From a virus (lineage: Duplodnaviria > Caudoviricetes): DNA of 64,000 bases. The translations under genes and the position numbers were made by a program. The DNA lies in the IMG/VR virus record IMGVR_UViG_3300037313_001869, positions 256,001 to 320,000 of that record. The stretch is one strand, 5' to 3'. Below, piece after piece: positions 8,762-18,615 of this stretch; the stretch's first letter is position 1, and each line of letters opens with the position of its first letter. The notes beneath the pieces are model-generated. The model ran no database searches. It was not told the origin of the DNA and was given only the letters and a program-made list of their open reading frames with translations.

Positions 8762-9127
8762 TCAGCCGAGCTTCGAGCCGGGGGCCACGGGCGAAGTGGG
8801 CCTGAGGACCGACAGGGCCTCGGGACCCGATCCGGCCGCGAGGATCATCCCATGCGACTCGACACCCATCATGGCCCGGGGCGGGAGGTTCACGACGAAG
8901 GTGGCCTGGGTACCCACGAGGTCCTCGGGCTTGAACGTCTTGCCGATGCCCGCGAGGATCGTCCGGGGAGAGCCCTCGCCGAGGTCGACCGAGAGGCGCA
9001 AGAGCTTGTTGCTCTTCGGCACCGGCTCGGCCGACAGGATCGTGCCGATCCGGAGGTCGATCTTCTGGAAGTCGTCGATGGTGATGATCGGAGACGGGGC
9101 GGGGATCGTATCGGGCGTGTCGCTCAT
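8762..9127 (-). CDS. tRNA-binding OB-fold protein (Trbp111/CsaA/MetRS C-terminal like)
   Basis: ITIDDFQKIDLRIGTI, NLPPRAMMGVESHGMIL. Confidence 0.88.
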   Translation of the reverse strand: MSDTPDTIPAPSPIITIDDFQKIDLRIGTILSAEPVPKSNKLLRLSVDLGEGSPRTILAGIGKTFKPEDLVGTQATFVVNLPPRAMMGVESHGMILAAGSGPEALSVLRPTSPVAPGSKLG

Positions 9128-9146
9128 GCTCACGACAGACACCAGC

Positions 9147-9716
9147 TCAGGAGCGCTTCTGACGGCTCTCGCGGAGGATGTTGAGAAACAGAAGCCCCTG
9201 CTCCCGAGCATCTTCGACGGCGATGTGAGTGTGCTTCGTCTCGGGAAACCAACGCTTCGGCATGTTCCGCTTGGTCGTGTAACGGTAGTCCGTCCCGAGC
9301 ACGGCCATCGCGAAGCTCTTGATGTCGAGCGCCGAGAACGAAAACGGGCTCTCTCCCGCGAAGCGCCGGAGATACCAGTAGACGAACAGGAAATCGAAGC
9401 CCGCCGGATAGCCCACGAAGACCGGCGTGTGCCCCAGGCCCTTGAGCCACGCGACGTAGCGAGGCATGGCCAGCTCGGGCATTTCAGGGTCCTTACGGCA
9501 CGCAGCCCACGCCTCCGGGTGCTTGACCCAGAACTCGGTCATCGTGGAAGGATCGGGCGTGGCCCCGAAGAGCTGCACGAGGTTGACCGAGAACGAACCG
9601 ACCTCGGTACCGTCGGCGAGGAAGGCGACCGAGCCGAGACTCAGCATCGAGTTGGGACCCGGGATGGGGCCGTCGGTCTCGATGTCGGTGCTAACGTAGA
9701 CCTCAGCGCTTGCCAT
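9147..9716 (-). CDS. DEDDh 3'-5' exoribonuclease (RNase AS/Rv2179c-like)
   Basis: [21 protein letters not shown]. Confidence 0.8.
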
Positions 9717-10739: not shown

Positions 10740-12332
10740 TAACCAGCGCGTGCGGCGCTTGCCCAGACGGGGCTGCTGCTTCAGAGGCAGCGGCGCCGGC
10801 TCGGGCGGGATCAGGTCGGCACCAGACGAGAGCGGCGAGGAGCTACCCAGGCTCACTCCGAGCGCCCCGAGGCTGAGGTCGGGGTGCGGCGTCACGGTAC
10901 CCACCGACCCGAGCCCAAGATCGGGCGGGGTGACAGGCTCCACCGAAACCAGCCGGACCGGCTCGGGCGTAGGAGTGGGTACCGGGCCCGTGAAGGTCGA
11001 GGTCATCACCTCCTGGGCCGAGTTCGAGACGGCGTAGTTGGCGCTGAGGAGCACCTTCTCGTCCTCGGCCGAGAGGCGCGAGGCCGACACGCCGCGGTTC
11101 ATGGCCCGGCGCATCCCCTGGCGGCTGCCGACGGTCTGGGTGTAGACGCCCGGCAGACCGTACATGCCCCCGAGGTGCGAGGCGACGCCGGCCACGGCGT
11201 CGAGACCGCGGGTCTGGAAGTCGGCCTGCACGACGTTGAAGGCAGCCTGCGCAGCCTGGAAGTCGCCCTTCTCGGCCGCCTTCTCGGCGGCGATCTGAGC
11301 CTTGACGAGCTGGGCGCGGGCCACGATCTCGTCGACCTCCTTCGAGGCTTGCTTCTGCTCCTCGCCCGAACGGACGAACTGCACCTTGGCCTTCGACTCC
11401 TCGGCCCGCTTGTCGACCGACCCGTCTTCGGCGAGGGTCTCGTAGCGGACCTTGACCGAGAAGGCGTTGACCGCCCTCGGGCCCGGCTGCTTCTGGGCCG
11501 CGAGCTTCACCCGGAGCACGAGGTGCTGGGTCTCTTCGGCGAGCAGGGACGGGACCTTGATCGAGACCTCGCCGTCGACCTCCTCCTCGACGTTCACGTC
11601 CGAGAGGACCTCGGCGATCTGGTGGCCGTTCGAGGGGGTCACGTCGATCGTGATCGACTGGGCGTAGGTCGAGAGAAGCCCGCCCAGCTCCTTGCCGAAG
11701 GCGGCGAGGGCCTGATCGGGGTCTTCGATGTAGGCGTAGTTGCCCTCAGCCTTGCCGGCGAGAGCGTTCAGGAGCCCCTGATCGGCATCGCGGCCGTAGC
11801 CGAACGCCGAGACCGAGACATGACCACGGCTCTTCTCGACCAGAGCGCAGAGGCTCGCCTGGTCCTTGGCGATGCCGTGGGTCGGCTGCCCGTCGGTCAG
11901 CATGATGATGCGCGTGAGGGTACCGGCCCCAAGGTCGAGCTGCTTGGCCACTTCGAGGGCCTTCAGCATCCCGTCCGAGAAGTTCGTCCCGCCCTCGATG
12001 TTGATACGGCCGATGGCGAGCTTCAGCTCGTCCTTGCGGGCCTGGGTCATCTCGACCGGATGAAAGTCGACGCGGCCGGCGTCGGAGAAGGTGACGAGCC
12101 CGCCGTAGTCGCCCGGCTGGAGCTGATCGATGAGCTTGATGGCCGACTGCTTCGCGTAGGCGAGCTTCGGACCCCGCATCGACCCCGAGATGTCGATGAC
12201 CGGGATCACGCAGACCCGCGAGCGCTTCTTCTGCCAGTCGATGGCCGGCGCCGTGAGGCTGACGACGAGGTGGGCCTCGGTGTCCTTGTCGAACGCGACC
12301 TGATCGTGCGAAAACTGAGCGTGGATTTTCAT
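10740..12332 (-). CDS. von Willebrand factor A domain protein; ends ...KRRTRW-TTA
   Basis: MIDAS DISGSM, GGTN, LTDG; TTA two codons before TAG. Confidence 0.85.
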
Positions 12333-12553: not shown

Positions 12554-12802
12554 ATGGGACGACTCAGGAAACTAATCCGCGAACGCCTCGGCCAGGCGAC
12601 CAGCAATCGCGAGACCTTGGTGACGTGTGAGTCGTGCCAGGGTTCGGGTATGGTCGTGGTCGAGACCCCCGCCGGCTACCGAGGGACGCAATGCGTCTGG
12701 TGCCACGGCGGGGGCTTCGCCCTTCGTGAGGTCAACTACGCCTATGCCCGCTGGCGTCGGATCAAGCTCCGGAACCAGCGGGCAGGAGCGTGTGGCAGCT
12801 TA
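12554..12802 (+). CDS. DnaJ-type zinc-finger small protein; ends at TTA
   Basis: CESCQGSG and CVWCHGGG; TTA 12800-12802 is the complement of the HNH TAA. Confidence 0.65.
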
Positions 12803-13867: not shown

Positions 13868-13912
13868 AACGAGAAGAGGGGCCGGCCCAGGAAAGGCCGA
13901 CCCCTCTTTGTG

Positions 13913-14439
13913 GGTGGAGATGCGCGGAATCGAACCGCGGTCCGTGAGGTGAGAAATCGAGCCTGCTACGTGCGTAGTCTCTCGCGGGCCCGAAGGCCCC
14001 ATCCAGAAGAGACAGTCCGGCCCGGCACCAGATTTTGCGCCGGGCTAACTCTATCTCAGACGCGAGACAGCAAGCGACTGACCGTCAAAGAATCGGGCCC
14101 TGCGCCGCCGGAGCCTGGCTCCCGCGTCCTATCCGTAACGCCAGCCGAGACGTGCCACCAAGGTCGCCCCTGGGTTCGTGCCGACTAGCCCTTTTACAAT
14201 GTGTCTCGTTCCCGAGGCCCCACGGCGAACCCCAGGCTACCAGCCCTTGTCGTTTGGTCGTCCCCATCCCGGCTACCAGGGCGATCTCACCCAGGACGAG
14301 TATCCTCTAAGGCCGCGAGGGCCGGCGAGGCGGCGAAGTTGTCGTTCGCAGGTGTGGTTGCCCCGTTGTTCAAGGCGGGCTGGGCGCCGCCTGCACGCAA
14401 ACTCGATCGATCACCCCCCGTCGAAACCATTTCATCCCC
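13913..14439 (-). ncRNA. ssrA: tmRNA, enlarged (~527 nt), tag ANDNFAASPALAA-TTA
   Basis: 5' GGGGATGAAATGGTTTCGAC; 3' GGTTCGATTCCGCGCATCTCCA with G3.U70; tag reading frame 14349-14311. Confidence 0.93.
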
Positions 14440-14493: not shown

Positions 14494-14578
14494 GGTGCGG
14501 GAAGGGGGACTCGAACCCCCATGCCCAAGGGCCGCCAGGTTTGAGCTGGCGCTGTCTGCCGGTTCCAAGCATTCCCGC
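14494..14578 (-). tRNA. tRNA-Leu(CAA)
   Basis: loop CTCAAAC, long variable arm. Confidence 0.88.
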
Positions 14579-14618: not shown

Positions 14619-15320
14619 ATGCGCTACAACTACGATCGCCGCGCCAACGAGAACGAGCCCCAGTCCGTCGAGGCGACCGTCGAGGTCGAAGCGGCCGGCA
14701 AGAAGAAGCACCCGCACATCGTGGTCATGAACCGCGCCCTCGTGAAGCTCAAGCCGAAGTACGAGCAGTACCTCGCCAAGCTCTTCGGCGAGTCGTGGCA
14801 TGTCTCTGCCTACGAAGAGAGGATGATGGACTCGATCACCATCTCGGCCAGCTCCCCGATCAAGGCTGGGGGGTCGTGGGCGCTGGAGATTCGAGTGTCC
14901 CCCGAGGCGACCTGGAACCTCAAGGAGGACTCCAAACCCTTCTTCAGCGGGTGGGTGACCTTCACCGACCCGACCAAGCACCAGAGGGCCGAACGCCGCC
15001 TGAATGACACGCTCCCGGAGCAGTTCACCCCCGAGAACATCCTCGGCCCCATCGCCGACCGGATGAAGGCGGCCTACGGCGGCAGCGTCGACAAGGAGAC
15101 CGACGAGGTCAAGGAGTCGATCGAGAAGTGCCGCGAGAGCCTCGTCGAGGTGAGCTTCGCCCTCGACCAAGCCGAAAAGGCCATGGCCAAGGGCGACCTC
15201 AAGGCTGTCCTCGACGACCTGTCGAAGACCCTGCGGACGGTCAGCCGCTCCGCCTCGGATATCGAGAGCGAAGCGCTGCACACGGCCCAGATGCTCGAAA
15301 AGCTCCAGCAGCTCAAGTTA
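14619..15320 (+). CDS. hypothetical protein; ends at TTA
   Basis: MRYNYDRRA...LEKLQQLK then TTA opposite a convergent TAA. Confidence 0.7.
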
Positions 15321-16169: not shown

Positions 16170-16436
16170 TAAACCCCCCTGCATCGGGGGAACGAAGATG
16201 ACCTGCTGCGCCCTCGGGTCGAACTCGGCCATCATCTCCCCCCGGGCGCCGTCCTCGCCCTCGACCCGGAAGGCGACGTACTTCTGGCTGCGGAAGTAGT
16301 CGAAGCTCCGGCGAGCGTTCTCGACCTCGGCCTCGCTGTCCACGTCCCAGGTGATCTTCGTGTCGCCCTCACGGCCCATGACGGCCATCTCGTGGCGGCG
16401 CGGCGTGGTGGCGGAAACGGCAGCGTTCATGCTCAT
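16170..16436 (-). CDS. small protein ending in C-terminal Gly-Gly; ends at TTA
   Basis: GDTKITWD...VIFVPPMQGG-TTA-ATG. Confidence 0.75.
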
Positions 16437-16697: not shown

Positions 16698-17975
16698 ATG
16701 TTTACGTGGACCGAATCTCGCCTCCGGCGAGCCCAGAAGATCCTCGGCCAGTACGCCGTGAGCGAGTTCCGGAGCGCGCTCGCGAAGATGAGCAGGGCGT
16801 TCGATCACGAAGTGAGCCAGAGTGCCCTGCACTCGGCCTTTGCCCGAAACGAACTCGGCGCTCCGACGAGCTACTGCAAGGCCGACGAGGAGCTGCCCAC
16901 GCCGGCCAAAGCGGCGAAGCCTGCCAAGGCGTTCATCTCCGCCAAGGCCGAGCCGATGAACGAGCCGATGCAGAAGCTCATCGAGGCGACCAAGAAAAAG
17001 GCGCCCGTGTCGGTCGGCGACCTCTGCGACAAGCTCGACATGGCCCCCTCGAAGCTCCGGGCCCTCATCGTCTCGGCCCGGGCGCAGGGCATCGAGATCC
17101 ACGTCGAGCACGATCACGTCGGGCTCCAGATGGACAAGCCCAGCTCCCGCGTACAGAAGGTCGGCGTCGCGCCGGTCATTGGCGAGCGGCAGAAGGTCGC
17201 TGTCATCAGCGACACCCACCTTGGCAGCAAATACTGCCTCAGGGCGCAGCTCCGAGAGTTCATCCACTACGCCTACAGCCAGGGCGTGCGCGAGATCCTT
17301 CACCCCGGAGACGTGCTCGACGGCATGTACCGCCACGGCATGTTCGAGGTCTCCCACGTCAGCGTAGACGACCAAGCCCAAGACCTCTTCGACACCCTGC
17401 CCCAGCTCCCCGGCCTCACCTACCACGGGATCACCGGCAACCACGACTTCACGTTCACCGAGCACAGCGGCCTTCAGATCGGCCCCTACCTCACCAACTA
17501 CTTCCGCGAGAGGGGCCGGAACGATCTCCACTTCTACGGCAACCGATCGGCCTTTCTGAAGGTCCGCGGCGCCGTCGTGCATCTCTGGCACCCGAAGAAG
17601 AACACGGGTTTCGCCAAGTCGTACGCGATGCAGAAAAACATCGAGAAGTACAGCTCGGGAGAGAAGCCGAACATCCTCCTCGTCGGCCACTGGCACATCT
17701 TCTGCCAGGTCGAAGAGCGAGCCGTTCACGGCATCGCCTGCCCCACCTTCCAGGGCGGCGGATCGGCGTTCTCGAAGTCGCTCGGCGGAGCGCCGGCCAT
17801 CGGAGGGCTCATCCTCTCGTGGGACCTCACCCGCGACGGAACGATGAGGAGCTTCGCGGTCGAGAAGCGCAGCTACTTCGAGGAGGAGCGCCCGTACGTC
17901 GTCGGCGACGAGCCCCGCGAGGAGATCCGCATCCCCCAGCGTCAAGAGCCCAAGAAGCGCATCAACCGCCGCTGA
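16698..17975 (+). CDS. HTH plus calcineurin-like metallophosphoesterase
   Basis: DTHLG, GDVLDG, GNHD, GHWH. Confidence 0.85.
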   Translation: MFTWTESRLRRAQKILGQYAVSEFRSALAKMSRAFDHEVSQSALHSAFARNELGAPTSYCKADEELPTPAKAAKPAKAFISAKAEPMNEPMQKLIEATKKKAPVSVGDLCDKLDMAPSKLRALIVSARAQGIEIHVEHDHVGLQMDKPSSRVQKVGVAPVIGERQKVAVISDTHLGSKYCLRAQLREFIHYAYSQGVREILHPGDVLDGMYRHGMFEVSHVSVDDQAQDLFDTLPQLPGLTYHGITGNHDFTFTEHSGLQIGPYLTNYFRERGRNDLHFYGNRSAFLKVRGAVVHLWHPKKNTGFAKSYAMQKNIEKYSSGEKPNILLVGHWHIFCQVEERAVHGIACPTFQGGGSAFSKSLGGAPAIGGLILSWDLTRDGTMRSFAVEKRSYFEEERPYVVGDEPREEIRIPQRQEPKKRINRR

Positions 17976-17997
17976 GCCGGTGAGAGGACCACGACCC

Positions 17998-18615
17998 ATG
18001 ATCGAGAGCATCACGATCGATCCCCAGATCAAGGTCCGCGACCCGAGTGAGCTTCTGATGCTCCCGAGGGTCTTGCGCGTCCGGAGCTTCAACGAAGAGG
18101 CTTGCAAAGCGTTCGCCAAGGAGATGAGCCTCGCTCACCAGACCGGGCAGAACATCATCCCCGTGGTCATCGACTCCTACGGCGGCACCGTCTACTCGCT
18201 CCTCTCGATGATCGACACGATCGAGGCGGCCAAGCTGCCAGTGGCTACGATCGCCGAGGGCAAGGCCATGAGCTGCGGGGCGGTCCTTCTCACCTGCGGA
18301 ACCCCGGGCTACCGGTACATCGGCCCCAACGCCACGCTCATGATCCATGACGTGACCGGAGGCAGCAGCCGGACCAAGAGCGAAGAGCTGAAGATGAGCG
18401 CCCGGGAGATCGGGCGGCTCAACAAAAAGCTCTGGCGCATCCTGGAGAAGAACACGGGCAAGGAGAAGGGCGCTCTGTGGAACATGAGCCAGGATCGGGC
18501 GCGGACCGACTGGTACATCCTGCCTAAGCAGGCTGTCTCGCACGGGTTCGCAGACTACGTCGGCGTACCCACGTTCGAGACCACCGTGTCGGTCAAGACA
18601 ACGCTGACACTGTAG
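17998..18615 (+). CDS. clpP: ClpP-family protease
   Basis: SYGG, GKAMSCG, LMIHD. Confidence 0.85.
   Translation: MIESITIDPQIKVRDPSELLMLPRVLRVRSFNEEACKAFAKEMSLAHQTGQNIIPVVIDSYGGTVYSLLSMIDTIEAAKLPVATIAEGKAMSCGAVLLTCGTPGYRYIGPNATLMIHDVTGGSSRTKSEELKMSAREIGRLNKKLWRILEKNTGKEKGALWNMSQDRARTDWYILPKQAVSHGFADYVGVPTFETTVSVKTTLTL

Follow-up and report, generated by a model that had tools for sequence, protein, structure and literature searches.

A jumbo-phage tmRNA whose tag appears to end at UUA points to a probable UUA stop code in a Polyangiaceae clade and its phages

How does a tmRNA tag end when its reading frame runs from the terminal alanines directly into TTA? This question is raised by an RNA gene in a 64,000-nt stretch of phage DNA (the window, to which positions refer), part of a complete, 435 kb, 65% GC jumbo phage with terminal repeats. 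A first-pass annotation, made from the letters alone, described an oversized tmRNA here and offered two readings: either TTA terminates the tag and leaves a canonical degron, or it is read as leucine and the degron is masked, giving a code-dependent switch between rescue-and-degrade and rescue-and-keep. The tmRNA features are as follows.

13874–13908, minus strand: 15-bp terminator-like hairpin directly downstream of the tmRNA (z = -6.24)
13911–14439, minus strand: one-piece tmRNA gene, 528 nt to the CCA position (Rfam RF00023, sequence, two identical runs)
13911–13915, minus strand: discriminator A followed by CCCA, with no CCA encoded in register (sequence; similar ends in several Polyangiaceae tmRNAs)
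13978–14171, minus strand: expanded segment, 194 nt against 19–20 nt in three relatives (alignment)
14172–14239, minus strand: pk3-like region, two crossing helices (helix list; 3' strand motif common to three phage relatives)
14287–14307, minus strand: read-through tail (LEDTRPG if translated), which is not conserved and lies across predicted stems (alignments, helix list)
14308–14310, minus strand: TTA, putative tag stop (TAA, TAG or TGA at the same place in standard-code relatives; TTA in one phage and seven bacteria)
14311–14349, minus strand: tag frame of 13 codons, the last four being Ala-Leu-Ala-Ala (ANDN start and resume context common to 8 phage and 35 Polyangiaceae tmRNAs)
14360–14392, minus strand: pk1 region upstream of the resume codon (Rfam alignment, helix list; putative knot, from sequence)

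The oversized tmRNA is real. A covariance search with Rfam RF00023 matches 13912–14439 (minus strand) at 78.8 bits, over a cut-off of 47, and covers model positions 1–374, which is the whole model. The score is below that of its relatives, and ARAGORN does not call the gene. The acceptor stem with G3-U70, helix 2 and the resume context are all intact in the Rfam alignment, and the discriminator A and T arm are present. The RNA therefore resembles the one-piece tmRNAs of RF00023, including phage-borne ones, in its tRNA-like domain, helix 2, pk1 region, alanine resume codon and Ala-Ala tag end; it is unlike them in that UUA closes the tag, in some 175 extra nucleotides before the 3' strand of helix 2, and in being missed by ARAGORN. 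Phage-borne tmRNAs have been described in the mycobacteriophage Bxz1 group and Bacillus phage G (PMC4131195). Searching cultured phages with blastn returned short T-arm matches only, a first pattern scan of viral DNA did not find tmRNA relatives, and no sigma-70 promoter match was found for the gene. At 528 nt it is longer than the tmRNAs of eight related phages (350–397 nt) and those of the Polyangiaceae (about 340–390 nt). The initial estimate of about 527 nt against a usual 350–400 nt thus holds, but the extra sequence, first placed in the pseudoknot region at large, narrows to the 194 nt at 14171–13978, which appear to replace the pk4 region (alignment, helix list). The encoded 3' end is A-CCCA at 13915–13911, so CCA must indeed be repaired, as had been pointed out; this is ordinary in the group, since unencoded CCA is common among the tmRNAs compared and several from Polyangiaceae end likewise. 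No match for SmpB or for a CCA-adding enzyme was found in the phage (three relatives have the latter), which suggests that both come from the host.

The tag frame reads as originally quoted, GCG AAC ... GCC TTA GAG GAT ACT CGT CCT GGG TGA, with the resume codon GCG at 14349–14347, a conserved A at -4, and the TGA at 14289–14287 as its end if TTA is read through. It ends in Ala-Ala and then a stop if TTA is a stop, and does not under table 11. Among the eight related phage records compared, seven tags have Ala followed by TAA, TAG or TGA; the eighth, from the 322 kb phage G020, has ALAA-TTA and an unrelated 28-residue tail if read through. All the aligned relatives share the same alanine resume context and ANDN start. 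None carries a LEDTRPG-like extension after another leucine codon; standard stops stand there instead. TTA very probably ends this tag, which then would be a normal AA-ending degron, and the tmRNA appears to be an ordinary family member in function.

The genome as a whole treats TTA in the same way. Under table 11, 19 of 46 in-frame TTA codons lie within the last 40 codons (12% expected, p = 5e-7), and codon score falls from +0.16 to -0.19 after TTA, with no fall after any of 13 other rare codons. TTA is also the best of nine trial stops, raising coding cover from 0.842 to 0.881. No internal TTA is seen in 57,826 codons aligned to proteins of two standard-code relatives, but this absence alone is weak here because ATA is nearly absent too (one internal case in this GC-rich phage). 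It is C-terminal placement that carries the argument: in 24 genes TTA lies a median of 2 codons from the homolog's end, and read-through overshoots that end by a median of 41.5. About 70 genes, conserved core genes among them, are closed by TTA, as many as by TAA (an approximate count, from a simple in-house caller). UUA is thus likely to be a constitutive stop in the cell that translates the phage, and the first of the two original readings is strongly supported.

The surroundings of the tmRNA include the following features.

10740–12332, minus strand: vWA-domain gene closed by TTA (gene calls with TTA stop)
14494–14578, minus strand: tRNA-Leu(CAA), 54 nt upstream of the tmRNA (ARAGORN)
14619–15320, plus strand: gene closed by TTA, the triplet doubling as TAA of a convergent gene (gene calls)
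16170–16436, minus strand: 88-aa gene ending Gly-Gly then TTA (gene calls)
17998–18615, plus strand: ClpP-family protease gene (Pfam PF00574)

A ClpX gene, itself closed by TTA, lies elsewhere in the genome, and together with the ClpP-family protein it fits a working degradation pathway. The metallophosphoesterase and ClpP-family pair at 16698–18615 (plus strand) is common to G020 and was found in neither G001 nor G022. In fifteen convergent gene pairs, one TAA/TTA triplet serves as the stop on both strands (for example at 12800–12802 and 15318–15320). With TTA as a stop, one table-11 ORF (L020, 9400–14019) becomes two genes, one of 267 aa and the other a DUF6094 methylase-helicase, and each of them is common to G020 only. 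The 88-aa protein ends in Gly-Gly only if TTA is a stop; its ubiquitin-like end is a lead only, with no Pfam match and with unnamed viral proteins as its Atlas look-alikes. The window also holds 43 tRNA genes on one strand (10093–43559), with no Leu(UAA), no Leu(UAG) and a single Ser, and a stand-alone tRNA-binding domain gene at 8762–9211. Relatives G024 and G019 likewise have tRNA-Leu genes just upstream of the tmRNA, the nearest in G024 being tRNA-Leu(UAA). A CUA-anticodon (amber-type) tRNA is called by ARAGORN in this phage (genome c331929–332021), in G020 and in G022, and internal TAG is nearly nil.

In G020 the UUA-stop code appears even more clearly than in the source phage. Internal aligned codons comprise no TTA in 44,601, with 743 CTA and 258 ATA; 33 genes end at TTA with a median offset of 1 from the homolog's end, and TTA closes 97 of 338 called genes (11–29% across the two phages). 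A sister relation between the source phage and G020 is rejected in a nine-gene tree (delta logL 59.7; the AU test warned of few replicates), which suggests that the two adopted the code separately. The tRNA-Leu(UAA) gene was not detected in either phage and is present in G001, G022 and G024. In G022 (L123–L142) TTA is rare (16 against 384 CTA), yet it is internal and aligned to leucine, and the tRNA is kept; this phage possibly represents a state before or beside reassignment. Of two metagenome scans, the first gave nothing and the second only G020 again.

The same arrangement is found in bacteria. When GTDB was scanned by pattern for tmRNAs with Ala-Ala-TTA, seven Polyangiaceae (Myxococcota) MAGs came up, on contigs DASTPP010000111, JADLFU010000008, JANWXX010000071, CAYNEK010000036, CAUJFL010000099, CAZSDX010000231 and JALOQB010000140. 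All seven are true tmRNAs whose terminal Ala-Ala is followed at once by an in-frame TTA and whose tails are unrelated, and the 29 other tags read in the family all end in standard stops. For G136 (L283), ARAGORN gives a 24-residue tag by reading past TTA, a mis-annotation caused by the code. In all five clade genomes checked, ribosomal-protein genes are closed by TTA: rpsJ, rplB, rpsS and rplW have it where relatives have TAA, TGA or TAG. For rpsJ this is the codon at which the control G107 has TAA, for rplB that at which G081 has TAA, and for rpsS that at which G026 has TAG. In about 360 kb of sampled clade DNA TTA is the best trial stop, which it is not in controls (small counts). The tRNA-Leu(UAA) motif is found in none of eight clade genomes (the seven plus G046), all incomplete MAGs whose absence counts as one evolutionary event rather than eight, against 127 of 143 others; the clade appears to have lost this tRNA. 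To judge from these sequences, TTA behaves as a stop in this phage, in G020 and in the Polyangiaceae clade.

What would release peptides at UUA? The seven TTA-tag genomes and G046 share an RF2 that is 75–80% identical within the group and at most 68% identical to others, and the same genomes group in both the RF1 and RF2 trees (support 99 and 100). Scored against 22 non-clade relatives, its changes are T139Q, D143G, a 3-aa insertion after G175, L201F, F207Y (seven of eight), S216A and S218V (E. coli numbering). They cluster in the codon-reading head, at the tip of helix alpha-5 and the SPF loop, the regions with which RF2 reads the stop codon. An order-wide scan of the RF2 motif finds the Phe variant in clade genomes only, among 401 (rows with one mismatch being standard RF2), and clade RF1 keeps its PAT motif. 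S216A, which replaces the serine of the TSF motif, is shared by 7 of the 22 non-clade Polyangiaceae RF2s (L245–L266), and those among them with a tag read use standard stops; the change is therefore not sufficient and is at most a precondition. E. coli S216 appears to match Ser204 (an offset of 12 relative to Thermus numbering). In organelles, UUA termination has been tied to RF2 Ser204 changes (PMC12574857). If the host supplies termination, it is highly probable that the clade RF2 is the factor, and we infer that it reads UUA.

Whether the host does so has to be weighed against a phage that imposes a UUA stop on a standard-code host, by a release factor without GGQ, by a modifier of release factors, or by destruction of the host tRNA-Leu(UAA) followed by rescue. 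Most phage genes are without a known family, and 19 genes occur in both TTA phages but went undetected in two standard-code relatives, which leaves room for such a device. Ten of these 19 were scanned, however, and only a phosphoesterase, a ClpP and a methylase-helicase were recognised; no RF-1/PCRF domain was found in the complete source phage or 12 relatives (13 phage records), and custom HMMs found no release factor in four phage genomes. The code is moreover common to two non-sister phages, and a same-code clade exists in a bacterial family whose tags start alike. An imposed stop is thus unlikely, and the host most likely supplies UUA termination because no release factor was found in any of these phages. 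The clade bacteria are likely hosts through the shared code, the ANDN-type tags, the lack of a phage release factor and the two independent phage cases. A direct link, whose absence speaks for an imposed stop, was sought by several routes: comparing 73 CRISPR spacers with the phage gave no real match (the best, 17/35 nt, is chance); phage ClpX is 42–46% identical to all family members, with no clade preference; and the phage tmRNA resembles those of the clade no more than those of other Polyangiaceae. No host emerged from a search for ATCase homologs, and phage protein h16 was not found in 151 Polyangiaceae.

UUA might instead be leaky or context-dependent, the ribosome pausing for want of a tRNA and being released inefficiently, whether by near-cognate RF2 or through rescue of the ArfB type, and sometimes reading through. 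The missing tRNA-Leu(UAA) motif would allow this, as would the ArfB-like GGQ proteins in two clade genomes and the modest share of called clade-bacterial genes that TTA closes (about 6–8% in sampled DNA). Ribosomal-protein genes and 11–29% of phage genes nevertheless need efficient release, and the RF2 head changes are specific to the clade, which makes leakiness very unlikely.

The proposed switch, in which the phage would toggle between an ALAA tag and one extended by LEDTRPG, draws its appeal from the fact that ClpX needs the terminal Ala-Ala, which the extension would bury. It is not supported. The tails beyond TTA are unrelated and range from 2 to 28 aa in nine phage and bacterial tmRNAs. 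With UUA as leucine the phage genome would be inexpressible, since about 70 genes need TTA as a stop, and a standard-code cell therefore cannot support the phage. Neither the two TTA phages nor the likely hosts showed a tRNA reading UUA as leucine, and clade-bacterial tmRNAs end alike, so the arrangement is not a phage device; a switch is highly improbable. An assembly error or a frameshifted, dead tmRNA is hardly credible: deleting one T would restore a standard stop (GCC-TAG) and the RNA is oversized and scores below its relatives, but the tmRNA letters agree in contigs from two soil runs, either of them a possible source sample (0 substitutions, 0 indels), eight other tmRNAs have TTA at this place with different bases after it, and the RNA has kept its acceptor stem, helix 2 and resume context.

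The reading we favour, at a probability of roughly 80%, is that a free-living Polyangiaceae clade has reassigned UUA through loss of a tRNA and remodelling of RF2, and that at least two lineages of jumbo phage each took up the code on their own, tmRNA tags included. In the bacteria, tRNA-Leu(UAA) would be gone; RF2, which has changed near the residues recognising codon positions 1–3, would release at UUA as well as at UAA and UGA. The phage would infect such a bacterium and have dropped its own tRNA-Leu(UAA), and many of its stops, that of the tmRNA tag among them, would have drifted to TTA. With UUA as a constitutive stop wherever the phage is translated, its functional tmRNA would add a normal degron, and tagged proteins would go to ClpXP, whether host or phage-encoded, with SmpB and the CCA-adding enzyme of the host.

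The insertion seems to be a separate matter: it is absent from G020 and from the clade-bacterial tmRNAs, and is therefore unrelated to the code. Inside it is a 115-nt branched domain (13986–14100) closed by a perfect 8-bp helix, with z = -3.36 for this region, which was chosen after inspection, and z = -1.75 for the whole segment. No homolog was found in any fetched DNA. An intron, a repeat or an ORF was considered as its origin, and no homolog, duplication or convincing ORF was seen. It is probably a tolerated peripheral expansion, in the loop running round the small subunit; it may have a function of its own, though this is not favoured.

UUA-to-stop is the code of Labyrinthulea mitochondria (NCBI table 23). 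It is also found in peDinoflagellate plastids, whose UUA/UCA termination was called the first sense-to-stop case outside mitochondria (PMC12574857, 2025). The present case is like these in having UUA only at gene ends, an altered RF2-type factor and alanine at the Ser204 equivalent (S216). It is unlike them in concerning free-living bacteria of 4.5–12 Mb and about 70% GC and their phages, rather than small organelle genomes; clade RF2 also has further changes, and its alanine occurs in standard-code relatives. Stop-recoded phages, which read TAG as Gln or TGA as Trp, are likewise jumbo phage lineages with some members off the standard code. Here, however, the direction is opposite, from sense to stop, and the code appears to match the host clade rather than oppose the host; no internal stops occur in aligned regions and no phage release factor was found, unlike in stop-recoded phages that read internal TAG or TGA as sense and have a release factor and suppressor tRNA of their own. 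In Streptomyces, the rare UUA read by the bldA tRNA is leucine inside genes; high GC and the singling out of UUA are shared, whereas here UUA never stands inside genes and the motif of its tRNA is absent.

In the literature searched, outside which most subscription papers lie, UUA-to-stop is reported only for mitochondria and plastids, and no bacterial case was found. If confirmed, this would be, within that literature, the first sense-to-stop reassignment found for a free-living bacterium. It would provide a natural four-stop code, a purifiable release factor and close standard-code relatives as controls, making the rejection by RF2 of a pyrimidine at codon position 2 directly testable. Database proteins of such genomes would carry false C-terminal tails, and codes of this kind can be screened for cheaply through tmRNA tags. 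The value of this tmRNA lies in pointing to a code with UUA as a stop, used by a bacterial clade and by its phages; such a code is predicted to act as a barrier to gene and phage transfer and to give a marker, readable from sequence, by which jumbo phages can be assigned to hosts.
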